DNA of 62,503 bases, the filler included, from Collodictyon triciliatum (lineage: Eukaryota), in the NCBI GenBank assembly GCA_043381765.1. It is 3 parts of 3 records of this genome, joined end to end, with 100 filler letters (N's around TTAATTAATTAA, not from the genome) between each part and the next. Parts side by side here need not be neighbours in the genome. Positions count along the whole stretch, not along the records: positions 1 to 25,542 come from JBHJMP010000053.1; 2 more parts are not named here. One strand, written 5' to 3'. A program made the translations under genes and the position numbers. Positions 6,301-24,051 of the stretch are shown here, piece after piece. The notes below the pieces were generated by a model. That model did no database searches. It was not told where the DNA came from and was given only the letters and a program-made list of their open reading frames with translations. Position 1 is the stretch's first letter, and each line of letters begins with the position of its first letter.

Positions 6301-8147
6301 TCATATTAGTAGAACTGATATTGCATTTTATTTTCTACTTTTTTTTAAAAAAAAAAAGATGCTTGGTGTGGTTTATAGTTCTATCCCTGAAAAAAAACAT
6401 GAAGCTATTCGCTATATGACAGCCTTTACCAAGGTTTGATTCATCTACACTTTATGTTTTCCTACAGAACCACCGATAATTATGTATTAGTTATTCAAAA
6501 TAATAACGGGAGCCACCCATAATTTTGGATAATTTTTTTCTCAATAATCGTGAATTGCCCTCTTTTTAAAAAAAAAGGCTTATCCCGATGAAAGCGATGT
6601 TTTGGTGGAACTTGCAGAATTGCAGGAAACATTTGATCCAAAGGCATCCTTGCGAGGTTTTTTTTTCTTGAACACTTATATCAAATACAAATCAGACGAG
6701 GCAATTATAAAGAGTACTCTTCGACTTAAATAAGCCTGACTAATCTACTGGGGGTTTAATTTAATAAAAGAAAATCGAAGAAAAAAGACACAAAAGATGT
6801 TGGTATTAAATTGTAGCTACAACAACAATAATTCCGGTTGCAAAAATTAAAACAAAATTTCGAAAATAGCATATGAAAAAGCCATTGAAGTTAAAAGGAG
6901 GTTCAACGAACACATTCCCTATCAACTTCTCAACAACGCAGGGACTATGCACTTTATTGTTGGTTAGATTTTGGTTTCATACATACCATAACCCAATTAT
7001 GGCATCATCGGGTATAATAAATATGACGGGTGTTGTCATTAAGCTTTAAAAAATAATAATGAAGGAACAATCCAACCTTAACTGATGGCTTACTTTGAAT
7101 CAAAAATTATCACAGGAAAGCACAAAAAATACCACACTAGAATTGAGGAACTTACCAGAGCCAACAAACTTGCAGAAGCATTAGGTAATTATATAACTAT
7201 GAGGGAAATTTTTAAAGCCTCTTACCATTAATCATGCAATAGATTCATTTCACCCCTCGCGTCACTTTACGAGCGCACTGCAGTATTTTGACCAAGCGTT
7301 AAGTACTTCTGGGCTTGCTGCGTTTGAAGGAGAAAATGTCACACTTCAATTTAACAAGGGTCGAGTCTATGAGGTTAAAATTATACACATTGCTTTAGAT
7401 GAATAAATGCAAACCCAAACGAGTAGACAAATGCAATTCATATTTCAGTTGAGGAATACTCTATTGTTCAATTGGTTTGTAAATATATATATATATAAAT
7501 TAAGGGCTCCGAAAAAAATTATCTACCAAGTACAAAGTCATTGATGTTTACAATCTAGAAATACATACTCTTTTTATAGGAACTTCACGAAGACCATCTG
7601 GCAATCGAAATTTACGATGAGATTTTGAGTCACCATCCCACCTACACAGATTGTCGGTTTTTCGTGTGCTTTTCTCTTTGCTTGCTTTTTGTGTGCTTCT
7701 TGCGGTTAAGCCATATGCATGTCTATTTGGTACATTAGCACAATTTACTTACGTATCACAACCGCCAGGTCTTTTAAGGAAAGGATTTATGGAAAGAAAG
7801 AAAAAGAAATTCGGATCCGCCATGGAAATCTGCCAAAAAGCTGTCGAGGCAAATCGTATGCAATATGTGCTATTGAAATGTTGTTCCCTTAGTGTTTATG
7901 CTAATACTTTCTTCGTATGCATAATCACCCATATCCCCTCTATAGATAAAAGTGACTCAGGTATTATTTCCAAGGGCTATGTGCAACTTGAATGCGAGGA
8001 TTACAAGGTATAGTCGTATTGTAACCTGCTGTAATCCCTCCAATTATTGAGTTTATTTATTTTATTATAAGATTAGCTTCTTTTTAACCACAGAACACCA
8101 ATAGTATAATGCCTCTAATAAATTTACATCGTCTATACATATCTATT

Positions 8148-12662: not shown

Positions 12663-16267
<3,605 letters not shown>

Positions 16268-16683
16268 GGCGGCGAAACACCCCCTTCAATGACCTGAGTC
16301 CACAGGCAAACTCAACCCTATCATATTCTCCTTCCCTCTACTTTCCCCCAGAAGACGAACCGAGATTGAAGCAAAGCAAAACGAAACAAAACATGATAAG
16401 AAAGCGGCGCCTCTTCTGCTCCAACCCGTGTGCTGTTTTGTTCATTTTGCTTCAAACCTCCTCTGCATTGCCCCACACTCGTCATAAACTCGATAGACAA
16501 AGCCCCAGACATGTCCCCGCTACCGCAATCGCTTCAGCAGCTATGCTTCTCATGTATGTTTTTTCACGATTCCACCGCTCGACTTGTCGGGTTCCGCCTC
16601 CTTTGTGCCTCGCTTTGCCTCCCACGCCACACGCGCTTGGCAATTATCTCACACACGGCGGGTTCGTTGCAGAGACACATTAA

Positions 16684-17670
16684 TCAGCTGTTTATTGGTG
16701 TTGATGCGGCCGCCTCACTTTCCAGCGAGGATTTTCCGGTGTCTGTGCTCAGAAGGCGAAGTGCTTTTGCCCAAGTCGCGCGCAGGCAGGGGATGACGAT
16801 GCTGCAAACACTTTTATTCCACTCTTTGTTGTACTGTGCGATATGCTCCCGATTATACTCGAGCCACCTGGACAACCTCTCCGTTTCTGGCGTCAGGTGT
16901 TGAAAATCGAGTTTAGCATCACGCTCCAATATGACTGCAAGAAATCCTCAAAGCTGGGGTTGGATAGGCAATCATGCATATGCATCGCTCAAATGTAAGA
17001 TATGTATACCATCCATATCCTTGTGCTCCTCATTGAAGCGGTGGAATCGTTCATTGTTCAGCTTCCAAAACTGGTGCTGCTCGATTATCATCCTTTTGAT
17101 TAATTGCCAAAATAAAACAAATAATCAAGTGTGGTGTATCAGAATCAGTTGCAATTATTCACAATATCTCCAACAATTTTAGGAGGAGCATCACGAAGGG
17201 AATATTGTTATGATAAGGACAAGAAAATCACTTTTCGCTCATCAGTCGGAATCCTTTTTCCTCTGGCGTCTCATGAAAAGGGACTTCGTATTGAATCAGA
17301 CGGACGTTTGACTCCGGGTGGGGCTCATAGACAAATAAGGGACGTGGTCCTGGTTTGCTGCAGATTTTTCGGTACTCCTCCTCGAAGTCATAGTGTGTCT
17401 TCTTTTCCTGCTCCAGAGATGAGGACGACGAGGCGATTGTCTGGCACACAAGCACGACCGTAAGATCGCGCACAAGTCAGAGCGCAAGCAAAAGGTGCGG
17501 CAACTTGAATGATTCAAGTTGAACATACATCTCGTTTTCAATATCGAATCGTGATTTAATTTCGGATAATGACAAACCCTTTGGCCACCGGAGCCAAACG
17601 GCATAGAGCCGTGTCGGTTCTTGCTTGGTTGCCGAGCGTAGCACACGTATTGCGCCCCACGCTTCAGCAT
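16684..17670 (-). CDS. COA8: Cytochrome c oxidase assembly factor 8 (COA8/APOPT1 family), 4 exons, ~211 aa
   Basis: Exons 17670-17578, 17440-17232, 17092-17010 and 16934-16684 join in phase (636 nt). Motifs PHPESNVRLIQYEVPFHETPEEKGFRL, QHQFWKLNNERF and WLEYNREHIAQYNKEWNK parallel the APOPT1 blocks. The N-terminus is basic and lacks acidic residues (MLKRGAQYVCYARQPSKNRHG). Confidence 0.75.
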
Positions 17671-19239
17671 CCGACTTTAAAAAACAAACCAAGAAAAAGA
17701 ACGTGCTTTTTTTATTAGTATTATTGATTGATTTGCAGCATACTTTGGCCTGCTCTCAGAGGTGGCCGCGATCGCGTGCCGATCTCTCCACAGAAACTTC
17801 CGTCCTCTGAGCACTTTTCATGGCCAGGCAAGCGGCGTGTTGATTTCCTGCTCCGGTTTGATTAATCGCTGCGTTTCGAGGAGACAGAATATGTCGCTCA
17901 CAGGGGACAAAATATTACAGAACAGTAAATAGATGACCATCTATCTATTATCCATTTATGGAATATATTTCTACTAAATTTAGTATATATTGAAATATCC
18001 ATCTGTTCTTTACTATAAATATATTAGTAAAGTTTGTTTGAATTTGATCATAAGTTATGTGATGTTGTTCGACCCAGAGATGTCCAAATTCCAAATACAC
18101 CCAAAATTCCAGATAAAATTCCAAATTTGGAAAGTAAATCAAGCGATTGGAAAGAGGGATTCTGAGAATGACGAGACCACCTATCAAGAGATTGGAGCTG
18201 CGTAATGCCTGCTGACCGAACACAAACCGCGAAGGCCGACGCAGCCGGCGCTGAGAGCGAAAAGGCCACTTTACCACATCCCTCTTCAACACAGGTTATG
18301 CACCGAGACACACCGAAGACCAAGACACCACTGCCACCAACCCGTGAGTGCAACAACCTACGATTAAGACGGAGCGAGCTCTTTGATGAGCAAGGTAGGG
18401 GCGAAATGATAGTCTTTTGGGCTCGGAGCATGAGCACGCAACGCGCAATGAGCACAACTCCGTGGCATGGACGACTCCAACGCTCCTGGCCTGCTATCAC
18501 TGTGAGATCCCAAAACATGCAATATTGCAACCCATAGAACAACACAACAAATCTCTTTTATTTGTTCTTTGGTAATAAGAATTATGTGTGAAGTGAATAA
18601 AGTGAGTCAAACATTCCTAAATGAAATGGGTTAAAACAATTACGTAAAAAAAAAAAAAGTGAATAAGTCTTATATGATATGAAATGACTGAGGTATTTTA
18701 TTGACGGCTTTTATGATAATAAATGATGTTTTATGAGGTTTGAATATAGAATGGCATATTGATATAAATAAAAACTACTTAGTTCGATTTGACGGAGTAA
18801 GAAGATAAGCAAAAGGGTCATTCCATCAGTCTAGCCAGCATGAGCGACGATCAAGTTTCCAAATATTTGGGTAAAAACAAGTTTAGCGGCTGCAAAATGA
18901 GGGGCAAGATGAAGCAAAAAAATAGCGAGGGAGAGTAAAAGCGGTCTGCAAAAGTCAAGAGGCAAAATGAGACGCCTGAAGAAAAGGAAGGCAGACCAGC
19001 AAAGATGCGGGTTTACGATAGACAAAGACGGAAAAGGGAGATACTCCAGCAAAGAGATGGAAGGCTCAATGCTTAAGTGACTCGGTCACGAGAATCAAAC
19101 AGAACAACAAACAACTGAAGAAAGGGGTCAAATGCCTCGAGCTCTAGCCATCGACTCACGGGTAACAAGATAATTATGAATACAGCACTCAGTATCAGTT
19201 GCTCCGATTCATTCATCCGTTTCTTTTTTTCCGTTTCGT

Positions 19240-19440
19240 TTCTTTTTCTTTTTTCTTTTTCTTTTTCTTTTCTTTTTTCTTTTTTCTTTTTCTTTTTTCT
19301 TTTTCTTTTTTCTTTTTTCTTTTTTCTTTTTTCTTTTTTCTTTTTTCTTTTTTCTTTTTCTTTTTCTTTTTCTTTTTCTTTTTCTTTTTCTTTTTCTTTT
19401 TCTTTTTCTTTTTTGGTTTTCTTTTTTCTTTTTCTCCTTT
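19240..19440. repeat. (TTTTTC)n low-complexity tract
   Basis: Read directly from the sequence. Confidence 0.9.
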
Positions 19441-20112
19441 CTCTTCGGTCTCATTCAGCCTGTAAATAAATAAACTTCATTACAGAGGTTGTGACGAACT
19501 TGGTTTTATCCTCTCAAGGCACAACACTTTTTATACAACGAAAGTGTTCTCATATATAGCGTTTTATGGCACAGACAACCATGGAATTAAATCTGGGTTG
19601 AAGAAAGCAGGAGCTTTGATGAATCTAAGAAGGAACCTGAATAATACAACAGTATGATTAGTATATATAATAAGGTTAAAAAAAATACTTAATGATATCA
19701 TTCCATTCCTATAATTAATCTATATTTTATTTTCTATCTATGTAATGTTATCATTAAAATTCAAAAAATACAAAAAAGTCCTTACTTTGGCCCAGACAGA
19801 GCCCACCCTATAAACCTGCCACCAAACATGCATTTCAAAAAAGCATACTATCCACACTTGCGGTGGTAATCATGTTGTTTGGGGCCGATATGTTGACTTT
19901 CAGTCGCAATGGCTATACGGCCGTCCTTTCGAACTCGTCGAATCAGCTTTCAGCGTTTTGTCTTAAACCACTTACAAAAAACATTGTATGTTTGTTTGCC
20001 GCAATGCGCACAATTTGAAAGTCTCGGTAGAATCTTAATTTTACATAATTTATTTATTTATTGAATTGACTAATTCGCTAAAGTTTTATTAAAATTGAAA
20101 CCTCGGTAGTTT

Positions 20113-22023
20113 TCTAAAGAAAAAAGTAAAACAGAGACTTTCAGATTAAGAAAAGAAAATGTCTTGGGTCTGAGAATCTAAAGTCTGTAAAACCGCTATC
20201 GAAATGTGAAAACATCCCTAAAGTCGATTGTATAGAATCCGGATGACTATGACAAAATCAACGATACGGTTCAATTGTGCCATAATTTGATTACCGACAC
20301 TTATCTGTTTGCAAGATGTTACATATTGAAATCACAACAAGACCCAACAATCGATGATTTTTTTTTGTAAGCTTTAAAGACAGTCGGAATAGTTTCACAA
20401 GAGAGGCTCGCAAGTTTAAAAAATCCAGATATGAGAGATGACATGATGACTTTTTATCTCAATGTTTTTCGATTCCTTTTGTCCCGAGAAGAACGCTCTC
20501 CGTTGGTTGGACTGTCTCATGTGTTACCGTACTTGGCGAAGCAAATGTTTACAACTTATCATTATAACATTAAGGAACATTATGTAAAGAGGTTACTGCG
20601 CTTTATAAATCAAACAGTTCCTAAAGATGAGAATATTACGGAAGATATTAAAAAGGCAGAGTCACGAATGTTAAAAAAAAAAAACCATCTTCAAGAAACT
20701 CGAAATACCGGAACAATGCATAGAATGGGCTAAAACGCATTTGCATCATATCATTCCCAGCGGTATTGTAAAAGGTATCGAATATGACGTCAAAGTCAAT
20801 CCAAACAAGTACGCACCATGTCTGATTTACATGAATCCCATTTTTGAGGATATTGGAACCAAACTGTTTCAACCAATCTCTACAAGAACTACCAATATAC
20901 CATGTCATATTACTCTAGATGCTGCATGTTTGATAGATATGTTAGTATCAATAGGAAAAACATTATTAATGAATATATATATATCAGGATGCAAAGAGGC
21001 ACTGTGGAATGACATCTTTGAAATGAAGAAGAGGGTCTTTCATCAAAGAGATTACAATATTAAATACACAATACAAACAGGCGGCTTGGTGGTGTCATTA
21101 TTGTTTGAAAAGAAACGTATTTAAAATTCAAAATTCAAATAAATCAAAAAACTAGGAATCAATATATAGATGAGCTTTCCGAGGAGCGGTTATTTTTAAT
21201 AGCGAAAAAATAAATAAATAAATAAATAAATAAATAAAATAGTTGGAGTGGACGCAGGCAAGTTTAATATGGCTTACATGGCAGATGAGAGAGGCAAGAA
21301 ATTACGTTACACGGCACACCAAACAAGACATGATAGCAAATCTCTTAAAAATGACAAAATTCTCTTGCGCGAGAAAAAGAAAAGTACAATGCTTCAGGGA
21401 TATACATGACAACAGATTTACAAAGTGCTGTTTCTTTTAGTGCCAGGACTTTTGAAGAGAATCAGCGGTTTGAGACATCAAGAACATCTTTAATCGATTT
21501 AGAGACAGAACCGAGCAAATATAATTCATGCACGGTCGATAATGAAAAATTTCGGGAATATGTATCTATGAAATCAAGATACCAGATAGAACTATCCAGA
21601 TTTTATGAACAATCAACTTTTCGAAAGATGAGATGGAGACAGTATGATAATACAAAACGAAGTGAACAGTTGTTTATGGACCGAATCGAAAAGACATTTG
21701 GCGAGGATGTTGTACTGGCGTATGGATGCTGGAGCAGAAAGCCTCTGATGAAACATTTTATGCCAAGAATCAGAAGAGGATAACGAAAAATACTATCCAA
21801 ACGTCTTGAAACAGTTAATGTAGACGAATTTAGAACCTCCAAGATGTGTTGCAACTGCGAATAAGAACTGGAATATATGAAACCGAAAGGAAATACAAAA
21901 AAAAATGTATAGATGTCTCATATGTAAATAATACAATCGCTCAGAAACCAAACAAAGTGTATTCTTGACAAGGGACTTTAACAGGGCTAAAAATATACTC
22001 AAGAAAATTATTTTAATCCTTTA
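20113..22023 (+). pseudogene. Fanzor1 (eukaryotic TnpB-like RuvC endonuclease) pseudogene
   Basis: The stitched translation gives YRNVKTSLKSIV*...INDTVQLCHNLITDTYLFAR, LSHVLPYLAKQMFT...NIKEHYVKRLLRFIN, KLFQPISTRTTNIPCHITLD and YTIQTGGLVVSLLF. RuvC-I is VGVDAGKFNMAYMAD (21242), followed by FYEQSTFRKMRWR and VLAYGCWSR..MKHFMP. RuvC-II plus Zn finger is VDEFRTSKMCCNC (21820), then YRCLIC, and RuvC-III is TRDFNRAKNIL (~21970). Premature stops lie at 20233, 20368, 21122, 21781 and 21862, with several frameshifts. Confidence 0.88.
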
Positions 22024-22029
22024 AAAAAA

Positions 22030-22260
22030 GTATACATCTTCCTCTAAAAACAGGCTGTCGGATCTCTCCTGGAAACCTTCACCACTACACGATCTTTTGT
22101 GAAAAAAGTGGCGAGACCTGGGATACAGCGGACGAAGTTTATCAATCAAAAGAATGGTTTACTCCTTCTAGTTATGGGATGGTAATAAAAAAAAATCCTT
22201 CATTAAATACACGGATAGGGTGAATGAATCGGTTGTTTTCGAATTAAATGTCGCTAATTC
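22030..22260 (+). ncRNA. Candidate Fanzor omegaRNA scaffold
   Basis: Lies directly 3' of the Fanzor ORF. Nested complementarity: gctgt..atctc (22054-22066) with gggatacagc (22120-22129), tcaccact (22079-22086) with agtggcga (22107-22114), inner cacga/ttgtg. A second hairpin is ttcatt..cac..gtg aatgaa (22199-22228). Confidence 0.4.
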
Positions 22261-24051
22261 ATAATTTATTTTGCTCTTTGTGCCTCTGCAAAGCTAAAAG
22301 GTTGCCTGTATTTTATTTTTAATTTTTAATAGGATATATAAAGTCACAGATATTGTCAAGTTAGATTTTTGTAGCCTATAAAGGCGCTTTGTAGGAAAAG
22401 CATTCTATGGCGAGTCGAACTAATTATACGACCTTCGTTCTTGGTCATCTCTTGCGATGAAAGAACCATCCAAAAACAGCAGCTCTCCAGCTTTCGTCTC
22501 GCCCCATTTATCAAACACGCACAAGACACATGCTACAGGCCAGGCCGTAGAATTTAATTCCAATCACCAATAACTTACCCGTTACCCGGCCCCCGAATAG
22601 CGTCCATGCAAGTCAAAGCTAGCAAACCAAAGCCGAAGCCTCCGCCATTTTAACAAACTGAAAGGAAGGATAAAAAAAAAAATTATCCTTATGTTCCATC
22701 TCACTTCCTCACTGAATCATAGCATTTTATACGGGATGTGTGAAAAAATATACATTTTTACTGACAGACCGTACCGCTTCATCAATATGACACCCCGCCT
22801 AGTTGAAGGGATGAGAGCGTGAAGGTTCGCACACAAGGAAGGCGAAGTAGCATCACAAGAAAAAAGAAGACGCTACAGCAATCCAAGGGATGTGCCTTTA
22901 ATATTTTTACTGTCCATCGCGCAATGTCCAAACAATTCTGCAATTCCGTTTAGTTCTGAGTGATCCTGACTGCGATCCCAGTAACCCGCGACGTGAGGAT
23001 CTGTGCTTTGAATGGGAAGGTGATCTTGAAGGCACGCTGCAATAGCGGATGGATGTTAAGCTCGAGAATATTGGGCTACTGAAGAACGAAAACGCGGCGA
23101 GCAAAAAGCGCATACGAGGTATTCCTGCCCTCTCGTTGGAATCTGCGTTTGGATGCGGTTATCAAAGGGACTTCTGCCAAGCCAACAAAAGACACCGGCC
23201 CCTCGGGCTGTGTGATGGATCTGCCTCCCCTAAGAAAGAAGGACTATCTGATTGGCCGCGCCCACCGCGCAAAAAATAACAGAAGAGCCAATGTGGCTCA
23301 ATACTTTTATTTGCACTTTGTCTGTCTGCATCCTGATCCTTACCAAAGGGGTTCGTGGTTCTTAGGACACTCCCGAACCTTGTCATTACGCGTTCCATTA
23401 TTTTTTTTCCTTTAGCCTCCCCTTTTTTCTTTTTTCTTTTCGTTTTTTCCCTCTTTCGTTAGACCATCTCTCCTTCACAACTTGGCTTCTTTATAGAACG
23501 AATTACACCTTGGTAAAGAATGCGAGGAAGCGAAGCCTTTGAGCAGGCCATGGATCGGGTATGTTCTGTTTTCCGAATCGTACGAGCCAGTCACCGCAGG
23601 ACAATACTTTTGCCTTGAATATATTCTTACTGATATTGAATATATATATATCAATATTAATATATTCAATATCACTTTCATATGCTTGTGCTCTTATTTT
23701 TTGAAATATAATTTCTCATTTCTCATTTTTGTTTTGTTTTGTTATATTTCATTTCATTTCATTTTATTATGTGTTAGATTTCTCAGTATTTTGAGGACTT
23801 GGATTGCGCTATATCCAGAGAAATATCACTCTATTCAAAAGCAGTGTCTAAAGGAGAAAGTGACATTATTGAAAAGGTATAATTAAAAAAATACTATGTT
23901 TTTAGTGTAACAATAGCAATCACGTCTTATGAGCATGTAAAAATAAAACAAAACTTAAACTCAAACTGAATACCCGATGAACATATTTGTCCATGTGATT
24001 TATTGATATGTTGCATAGGTGCGACAAGAGCGCAACCAAAGCCAGAAAGAT

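Follow-up and report, generated by a model that had tools for sequence, protein, structure and literature searches.

Positions 20113-22023 of a stretch of the Collodictyon triciliatum genome (assembly GCA_043381765.1; 62,503 nucleotides analysed in all, filler included, hereafter the window) hold reading frames broken by stops and frame changes, which raises the question of whether they are the remains of a Fanzor1 gene and whether that gene could still be alive. Among the TnpB RNA-guided nucleases, Fanzor1 proteins form the branch of eukaryotes and viruses, and they are carried by mobile DNA of eukaryotes and giant viruses. We consider it highly probable that the feature is a Fanzor1 gene copy that is full-length but decayed and non-functional, the rest of our preferred explanation being included in that estimate. 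A frame-aware alignment placed residues 1-648 of P0151, an intact database protein of 648 aa, end to end on window positions 20145-22107 (+), with 378 of 639 aligned codons identical (59.2% codon identity). Compared with the span originally given, the relic starts a little further in on the 5' side and extends 84 nt beyond it on the 3' side. The collinear alignment has no intron-sized gaps, and the label intronless is therefore valid; the tblastn HSPs at the relic are also collinear, with alternating frames. The X-masked read-through scored 513.3 bits (E 5e-158, Z=1) against a family profile built without P0151 (513-568 bits over the hmmsearch runs), far above chance, since the best of 200 shuffled controls reached 4.4 bits. 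The relic keeps 26 of the 29 invariant and 27 of the 32 nearly invariant family columns. Furthermore, a search of protein representatives with the read-through of 21355-22023 returned 1550 proteins at E <= 1e-3, 504 of them at E <= 1e-10, and its full-length matches measured about 620-680 aa; a homologue search with the fragment 20675-21124 ('longer' setting) confirmed none among 112 candidates.

Comparison with solved structures pointed in the same direction. A family profile of 15 full-length relatives (A1) matched PpFz1 (9cf0; E 7.5e-85), SpuFz1 (8gkh; E 2.9e-82, profile positions 3-605) and GtFz1 (9cer; E 4.2e-65) in the PDB, the next match coming only at E 0.015. The three Fanzor1 chains were also the only PDB matches of P0151, Fanzor1 structures were the top PDB matches of separate relic fragments, and the related protein P0002 aligned to SpuFz1 over residues 14-607 (E 9.2e-37). 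Judged from its sequence, the relic is a Fanzor1: PDB, profile and full-length alignment all agree, and the profile or structural match to the Fanzor/TnpB RuvC on which the original prediction had staked itself is present. The three solved proteins share with the relic family full-length homology, a C4 zinc ribbon and a length of about 650 aa, and the SpuFz1 metal ligands D383, E541 and D606 occupy the positions of the family's acidic residues, whereas the relic itself is a pseudogene and the likeness is distant, single fragments reaching only E ~1e-3. Pfam gave sub-threshold matches for single relic fragments (OrfB_IS605, 0.045; Cas12f1-like_TNB, E 0.007) and no family for P0151, which carries the precomputed label PF26935.1. 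Weak C-terminal matches of this kind are expected for the whole superfamily. ISDra2 TnpB (IS200/IS605) has the superfamily architecture in common with the relic family (RuvC-I D, TS-xx-C4 zinc ribbon, RD) and probably also the logic of a 3' guide RNA, but it gave no sequence match to profile A1 at E <= 1, and TnpB uses the canonical RuvC-II Glu where the relic family uses the alternative one described in Jiang et al. 2023.

The catalytic residues, all on the + strand, can still be read. The RuvC-I Asp codon GAC (GVDAG, 21251-21253) corresponds to D364, invariant in alignment A1, and aligns to SpuFz1 D383 via P0002, although the residue beside it is Ala in place of the family-invariant Pro (P365). 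The RuvC-III Asp codon GAC (TRDFN, 21974-21976) aligns by the same route to SpuFz1 D606, R603 and D604 being invariant. The Glu of VDEFRTSK (codon GAA, 21826-21828), which the original prediction had assigned to RuvC-II, is present but does not lie at the canonical position: it corresponds to E555, invariant in A1, aligns to SpuFz1 E541 and represents the rearranged, alternative glutamate that Fanzors typically use, as described in Jiang et al. 2023. The SpuFz1 structure paper names E541, D383, N385 and D606 as Mg ligands. Upstream of it, YGCWS (21721-21735) has C where the family has D or N (motif YG[DN]WS; pattern used: [DNE]x[VLI][IL]xYG[DN]WS); G521 and W523 of this motif are invariant, and its position may be the vacated canonical RuvC-II strand site. 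Sequence reading and the P0151 alignment also bear out the zinc-finger residues and both Asp codons of the original prediction. The TS-xx-C4 zinc ribbon, T-S-K-M-C-C-N-C followed by C-L-I-C, occupies 21835-21925, with Cys codons at 21847, 21850 and 21856 (MCCNC) and at 21914 and 21923 (RCLIC); C562, C565 and C587 are nearly invariant across A1. The ribbon is broken twice, by a TAA (21862) and a frameshift (21895), yet both CxxC pairs persist, and the D/E/D codons and four zinc-ribbon Cys codons survive. The superfamily motif of Bao and Jurka 2013 (PMC3627910), D-X(125,275)-[TS]-[TS]-X-X-[C4 zinc finger]-X(5,50)-RD, is found in full: D (21251), about 194 codons, T-S-K-M-C-C-N-C...C-L-I-C, 15 residues and R-D (21971-21976), or D364, T558, S559, C562/565, C584/587 and R603-D604 in P0151 numbering.

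In contrast to these surviving residues, the frame as a whole is ruined, and the relic is dead today, inactive and without function. The alignment to P0151 revealed seven frameshifts (20196, 20674, 21107-8, 21220, 21380-1, 21895 and 22040-1), three in A-runs and one in an (AAAT)n tract, and nine in-frame stops, a TAG at 20233 and TAA at 20368, 21211, 21227, 21781, 21862, 21929, 22022 and 22045, that is, 16 disabling lesions besides the lost ATG. At the start-codon position (20145-20147, +) stands ATT (Ile), and the residues KKRK, which come next, form a basic NLS-like patch; position 20147 is G in all eight covering contigs of sequencing run X7 and in both covering X4 contigs. The (AAAT)n microsatellite (~21207-21240, +), an insertion relative to P0151 just 5' of RuvC-I, brings two of the TAA stops and one frameshift. 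Every feature of the intronless frame with stops, A-run frameshifts and an (AAAT)n tract was thus read either in the sequence or in the alignment, as first described. Additionally, family motifs have suffered substitutions: the invariant P365 to A, E391 to D, and YG[DN]WS to YGCWS.

Many diverged sister copies exist in a related or identical organism. The X7 contigs gave 459 pieces on the stretch, spanning 19600 to about 22100, of which 47 were at least 99% alike, 99 at 95-99%, 168 at 90-95% and 145 below 90%, and every covering X7 contig differs from the window letter at four lesions (20147, 20233, 21782 and 22022). Because of this number of pieces and their range of likeness, from below 90% to above 99%, the lineage can be said to carry a multicopy Fanzor1 family, which upholds the proposal that it hosts or hosted one. 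Non-coding DNA upstream of the relic (19600-20144, +) is common to the multicopy family, X7 contigs covering six of six bins from 19600, and loose contig ends at 19603 still resemble the window, the repeat running leftward beyond 19600. In this regard, X7 is labelled 'RNA?' by guess, so its coverage limits may be transcript limits and not element limits; none of the sequencing runs matching the stretch is listed as RNA, and all shares are <=0.11. Within the window itself there was no second Fanzor1 copy, and the region 17000-22700 showed no self-similarity.

The closest relatives are P0151 and P0153, intact proteins of 648 aa on short ENA/JGI contigs, which are 59% identical to the relic over its whole length, form a clade with it (support 1.0) and have the KKRK patch at the N-terminus and every motif in common with it; they are intact where the relic is broken, and at 59% they are not one element family with it at the DNA level. 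The next relatives reach only 46% identity, and viral proteins, judged through P0151, 38-47% protein identity. In IMG/VR, relatives are encoded in 417 of 598 candidate stretches; 80 loci have uninterrupted frames of at least 555 aa, and 78 of these end in a stop inside the locus. Scans with P0151 alone yielded 36 pattern matches in IMG/VR, with none confirmed, and one distant metagenome locus, L081 (21% identity). In a midpoint-rooted tree, whose database proteins carry no taxon and whose viral loci were picked by likeness to the relic family, the relic with P0151 and P0153 is sister to P0002, P0154, P0155 and L001-L004 (support 0.786), inside a clade of 94 tips that includes the 80 viral loci (support 0.992). 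The nearest relatives of known source are thus on giant-virus contigs, in Tc1/mariner-plus-Fanzor1 elements. L001-L003 combine a divergent DDE_3/HTH transposase with a Fanzor1 gene in a common block of about 3.3 kb, like the elements of Bao and Jurka, and such a transposase lies in the examined flanks of 26 of the 81 loci. Bao and Jurka 2013 (PMC3627910) already describe Tc1/mariner elements with a Fanzor1 gene from giant viruses and protists (PGv-1, PUl-1), along with PUl-4, which is Fanzor-only, and with Fanzor-only derivatives of Tc1/mariner elements; the relic is likewise Fanzor-only, the likeness to PGv-1 and the PUl elements being drawn from their published description.

These relatives make it conceivable that the relic belongs to an endogenous viral element, a piece of giant-virus DNA that became integrated, and is not a free-standing transposon copy: the nearest source-known relatives sit on IMG/VR giant-virus contigs, viral loci dominate the clade of 94 tips, and relatives are frequent among the IMG/VR candidate stretches. 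However, the nesting among viral loci is partly by construction, because the loci were chosen by likeness, and no window ORF outside the relic matched the 81 loci and their flanks (393 ORFs of at least 60 aa compared). The neighbours have ordinary cellular Pfam domains and look like intron-split host genes (ATP sulfurylase plus APS kinase, an NHL-repeat protein and a protein kinase), and a dispersed repeat explains the hundreds of diverged X7 pieces, all within about 2.5 kb, better than one integration event would, so that a viral integrant seems to us very unlikely. Still less credence can be given to a Fanzor2 or a prokaryotic TnpB, brought in by contamination or recent bacterial transfer. 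The C-terminal 60 residues do show weak matches to Cas12f1-like_TNB, OrfB_IS605, LaTranC and a transposase (the latter two at E 0.015-0.27), but the likeness to Fanzor1 structures is full-length and takes in the N-terminal (REC/WED) half, no TnpB or Fanzor2 chain matched profile A1 in the PDB at E <= 1, and neither a length of about 650 aa nor a KKRK patch at the N-terminus nor eukaryote-like genomic surroundings fits such a reading.

A gene that is alive under a ciliate-type code, with TAA and TAG as sense codons and programmed frame changes, would account for the in-frame stops, all nine of which are TAA or TAG with no TGA, and under table 6 the locus does become three long overlapping frames (20065-20787, 20450-21409 and 21355-22227). 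Nevertheless, a codon-aware null expects a TGA share of only about 26%, so that none in nine has a probability of 0.06-0.07, and two of the TAAs lie in the microsatellite. In P0151, six aligned stops are matched by R, Y, L, N, E and F and not by one amino acid, three of the stop codons have a different letter in every covering X7 contig, and standard-code ORFs of up to 414 aa with Pfam domains occur in the window. The seven frameshifts persist whatever the code, the homologous signal truly switching frame (for example at YIDELSEERL and MYRCLIC...TRDFN), and the copy has substitutions at the invariant P365 and in YG[DN]WS. An alternative genetic code was accordingly rejected on the residues at stops, the frameshifts, the X7 letters and the standard-code ORFs, and a living gene of this type has virtually no chance of being the right reading.

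A decayed Fanzor1 copy, then, remains the preferred explanation, and the locus was searched for the ends and partners of the element that brought it. The relic showed no terminal inverted repeats or associated transposase: comparison of 19100-20150 with 21990-22400 gave a best score of 25 (shuffle mean 23, maximum 29), and no transposase, DDE_3 included, was found in the window (best E 0.69). In comparison, the Spu-1 element has 30-nt inverted repeats, and neither these nor an omegaRNA were found at the relic, which likewise differs from the viral Tc1/mariner elements in having no transposase trace, detectable TIR or viral-type 3' terminal hairpin. The viral relatives carry a conserved 3'-terminal hairpin of about 60 nt that ends in GGTGTAA and shows covariation; a sequence-only model of it (R1; RNAalifold found no pairs on alignment A3) gave no match near the relic, its best hit in the window (E 0.18) lying elsewhere. 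Rfam at gathering and E-value thresholds and a tRNA search returned no match, and fold z-scores carried no signal either for 21960-22280 (+1.92) or for the upstream region (-0.49 and +1.09). The window's subfamily may use a guide scaffold unlike the viral 3' hairpin. Because no omegaRNA, right-end motif or terminal repeats were found at the locus, the mobile-element part of our reading draws on copy number and relatives, the multicopy state in X7 supporting mobility of the family indirectly.

The history that these data suggest begins with an ancestor that would have been an active nuclease guided by an omegaRNA and whose target, as for SpuFz1, would have been double-stranded DNA next to a transposon-adjacent motif, cut by a RuvC site made of the RuvC-I D, the rearranged E and the RuvC-III D. 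The element that carried it may have been non-autonomous, having no transposase of its own and being mobilised in trans; the copy, having landed between host genes, would then have drifted neutrally, gathering homopolymer slips, a microsatellite expansion and point stops. More tentatively, the relic and P0151 could be traces of a burst, confined to one lineage, of a Fanzor1 element without transposase in a freshwater eukaryote. The element would descend from giant-virus Tc1/mariner-plus-Fanzor1 transposons by virus-to-host transfer, some copies would be intact and possibly expressed, and the scaffold would be unlike that of the viruses, perhaps lying entirely within the 3' end of the coding sequence and not in a 3' hairpin; we regard this scenario as possible but doubtful.

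As a find, the relic is ordinary, one more decayed Fanzor1 copy in a family catalogued in thousands, Jiang et al. 2023 reporting 3655 putative Fanzor-type nucleases that stay distinct when clustered at a threshold of 70%. Its subfamily has no name and stands at 59% identity to the nearest database protein, and it may already figure in the supplementary locus lists of the Fanzor papers. It does add a freshwater eukaryote with a multicopy Fanzor1-only family, and the giant-virus, mariner-type home of the nearest source-known relatives agrees with the proposal, already in print, that Fanzors travel between hosts in large viruses. The suggestion that intact copies or a consensus could give a new programmable nuclease is plausible, but its value would be only incremental given the size of that catalogue and the intact relatives already public; such relatives, P0151 for instance, are usable for ordinary nuclease screening.

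Homology searches identified the remains of a Fanzor1 nuclease in this stretch, as the original prediction had held. Pieces of one protein were found on the + strand at ~20.1-22.1 kb, distributed across alternating frames. Single fragments matched Pfam below threshold (OrfB_IS605, E 0.045; Cas12f1-like_TNB, E 0.007), and two non-overlapping fragments each had a solved Fanzor1 protein as best PDB match (21355-21783 with GtFz1, 9cer, E 0.0024; 20675-21124 with PpFz1, 9cf0, E 0.0048). When the read-through of 21355-22023, with stops as X, was compared by HMMER with 1.84 billion representative proteins, 1550 proteins were found at E ≤1e-3, 504 at E ≤1e-10 and 7 at E ≤1e-30, the full-length members being ~620-680 aa long. 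The intact 648-aa protein P0151, from a 2.6-kb ENA contig, showed 63% identity to this query in a word-indexed search, and its only PDB matches were GtFz1 (2.1e-28), PpFz1 (2.7e-24) and SpuFz1 (3.7e-23). Additionally, another relative, P0002 (634 aa), aligned with SpuFz1 over residues 14-607 (E 9.2e-37), and A1, a profile of 15 full-length relatives, matched PpFz1 (7.5e-85), SpuFz1 (2.9e-82) and GtFz1 (4.2e-65), followed by LaTranC (0.015-0.017) and a centromere protein that is unrelated; TnpB and Fanzor2 chains were absent from this PDB search at E ≤1. The relic read-through, with X at every break, scored 567.7 bits against A1 and 513.3 bits against A1 rebuilt without P0151, while the best of 200 shuffles reached 4.4 bits. 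In the 90%-clustered database, a search with P0151 gave 242 proteins at E ≤1e-20 among 7037 candidates, and only the P0151 cluster itself lay above 46% identity.

A protein-to-DNA dynamic programme allowing frameshifts placed P0151 residues 1-648 on window positions 20145-22107, free of intron-sized gaps, with 378 of 639 aligned codons identical (59.2%). In this alignment the start codon at the 5' end is lost (ATT at the start position) and seven frameshifts occur, at 20196, 20674 (in a 13-A run), 21107-8, 21220 (inside an (AAAT)n tract at ~21207-21240), 21380-1, 21895 (in an A-run) and 22040-1. The nine in-frame stops are TAG at 20233 and TAA at 20368, 21211, 21227, 21781, 21862, 21929, 22022 and 22045. 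The predicted loss of the intact frame through stops, frameshifts and the (AAAT)n tract was thus borne out, and this copy is dead. Of the 29 invariant columns of the family the relic retains 26, and of the 32 nearly invariant ones 27. It has lost M1, E391, five of the nearly invariant sites and P365 (P in DPG, here A), and the family motif YG[DN]WS reads YGCWS.

All the motifs quoted in the original prediction, the (AAAT)n tract included, lie where it had placed them. Direct reading of the + strand gave GVDAG (Asp codon GAC, 21251-21253), VDEFRTSK (Glu codon GAA, 21826-21828), MCCNC and then RCLIC, and TRDFN (Asp codon GAC, 21974-21976). In SpuFz1, two Mg ions are liganded by E541, D383, N385 and D606, according to Saito et al. 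(2023, PMC10432273). In the P0002-SpuFz1 alignment, with SpuFz1 positions counted along the fusion chain, D383 (D of IDPN) corresponds to the D of GADPG, E541 (E of LLDEYKTS) to the E of SINEFRTSK and D606 (D of NRD) to the D of TRD. These are the invariant A1 columns D364, E555 and D604 (P0151 numbering) and the window codons at 21251, 21826 and 21974, so the three RuvC acidic residues are indeed still readable. Furthermore, Jiang et al. (2023, PMC10530073) describe all Fanzors as lacking the canonical RuvC-II glutamate and having an alternative one ~45 residues off; by that description the E of VDEFRTSK is the alternative glutamate. The relic read-through also matches the Fanzor motif D-X(125,275)-[TS][TS]-X-X-C4-X(5,50)-RD, as given by Bao and Jurka (2013, PMC3627910).

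A sequencing-run index gave 14 runs with matching sequence (shares all ≤0.11), mostly freshwater and aquaculture metagenomes, and also two runs labelled as organisms A and B. Contigs of four runs (X1, X3, X4 and X7) were aligned to the window at ≥80% likeness. X7, labelled organism A and guessed to be RNA, gave 459 contig pieces over 19600 to ~22100, with 47 at ≥99%, 99 at 95-99%, 168 at 90-95% and 145 below 90% likeness. There is therefore a multicopy family with diverged members, in support of the proposed Fanzor1 family in this lineage. X7 coverage was near zero past ~22096 and persisted to the left edge of the compared stretch, where loose ends at 19603 were still window-like. X1, X3 and X4 gave one or two pieces of 132-151 nt each with zero differences (X1, X4 and X3 runs: e.g. 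21248-21513, 21635-21785 and 22187-22335), and therefore this locus or a near-identical one is present in those samples. These identical pieces cover unique flanking DNA as well, so freshwater and aquaculture samples contain the organism itself or a very near relative. Additionally, a single X7 contig, with a shorter side of 28 nt, omits 144 nt at 20772-20917, in frame and with GT..AG borders; either a copy with a deletion or a product of splicing might explain this.

Since the nine stops comprise TAA and TAG but never TGA, we tested whether the relic could be a live gene under a ciliate-type code, a reading that was rejected. The lack of TGA is not significant (codon-aware null, P(0 TGA of 9) ~0.06-0.07), and two of the TAA stops fall within the microsatellite. 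Frame changes are still required under table 6, and the homologous signal itself switches frame, e.g. at YIDELSEERL and MYRCLIC...TRDFN. Opposite the six stops that are aligned, P0151 has six different residues (R, Y, L, N, E, F), which contradicts reassignment of the stops to a single amino acid. Furthermore, at three of the stop codons all X7 contigs that cover them differ from the letter in the window. The relic, a dead copy, is one more Fanzor1 of a published kind; Fanzor1 genes, their decay products and their occurrence in giant-virus mariner-type elements are already in print (PMC10530073, PMC10432273 and PMC3627910).

In IMG/VR, at least 417 stretches encoding relatives were found among the 598 candidates listed. 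The best 80 of these loci, many with giant-virus MAG contig names, and one metagenome locus have uninterrupted frames of 555-637 aa (median 624), two of which overrun the locus end. A midpoint-rooted FastTree phylogeny (LG+gamma; 152 rows x 608 columns) was built from the 81 loci, the relic and those database proteins that are 550-800 aa long, leaving out shorter or longer proteins and P0152. The relic grouped with the proteins P0151 and P0153 (support 1.0), sister to a clade of P0002, P0154, P0155 and the viral loci L001-L004 (0.786), both within a 94-tip clade containing the 80 viral loci (0.992). Since the viral loci had been chosen for likeness to the relic's family and the database proteins carried no taxon, the tree speaks of kinship, not of transfer direction. 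L001 and L002/L003, from different viral contigs, share only L001 1631-4952, which comprises a divergent 346-aa ORF (DDE_3, E 1.3e-13, plus HTH), the Fanzor1 ORF and 47 nt. This IS630/Tc1-mariner-type transposase lies on the - strand ~320 nt 5' of the Fanzor1 ORF (L001:1638-2678; L003:1645-2676), and a homologue occurred within the available flanks of 26 of the 81 loci. The block has the arrangement of PGv-1 and PUl-1, Tc1/mariner-plus-Fanzor1 elements reported along with Fanzor-only derivatives such as PUl-4 by Bao and Jurka (2013, PMC3627910). A trace of the transposase was found nowhere in the window (best E 0.69).

DNA similarity among the viral loci stops sharply ~81-107 nt past the stop codon, and their last ~60 nt end in ...GGCGTTTTAAATGnnnAAAGGTGTAA, the final GGTGTAA coinciding with the point where locus-to-locus similarity stops. 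This terminal element lies just after the Fanzor1 stop (e.g. L012:2272-2333 and L001:4890-4951), and in L001-L003 it overlaps the stop codon. In 61 distinct IMG/VR sequences it forms a long hairpin that encloses a GC hairpin; compensatory changes are seen in the closing helix (e.g. columns 77/129, UA in 25 sequences and GC in 23). It probably serves those giant-virus elements as omegaRNA scaffold or right end. A sequence-only covariance model of the element run over the window found none at or near the relic (best match at 6519, where the sequence is T-rich, E 0.18), and Rfam gave no match at the relic. The relic's 3' region folded no better than shuffles (z +1.92), and the shared region upstream showed no fold signal. 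In the relic's subfamily the guide RNA may overlap the 3' end of the coding sequence, or it may have decayed.

The relic is the only copy in the window, and inverted repeats between its flanks did not rise above chance. Outside it, no window ORF was similar to any viral locus or its flanks. At 19176-19470, directly 5' of the DNA common to the multicopy family, lies a long, imperfect microsatellite, (CTTTTT)n / (GAAAAG)n, which might mark or mask the left limit of the element. The window looks like eukaryotic nuclear DNA; searches of it with tRNA models and Rfam gave no match, its reading frames are fragmented and cellular Pfam domains flank the relic on both sides (PUA_2 plus ATP-sulfurylase and APS kinase at 13.7-16.3 kb, NHL repeats at 24.0-25.3 kb, a protein kinase at 39.8-40.7 kb). 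At 13394-16683 (+), the PUA_2/ATP-sulfurylase exons are followed by an APS-kinase exon on the same strand. This sulfurylase-then-kinase order is of the fungal type, as opposed to that of animal PAPS synthase, and hints only weakly at the host lineage.
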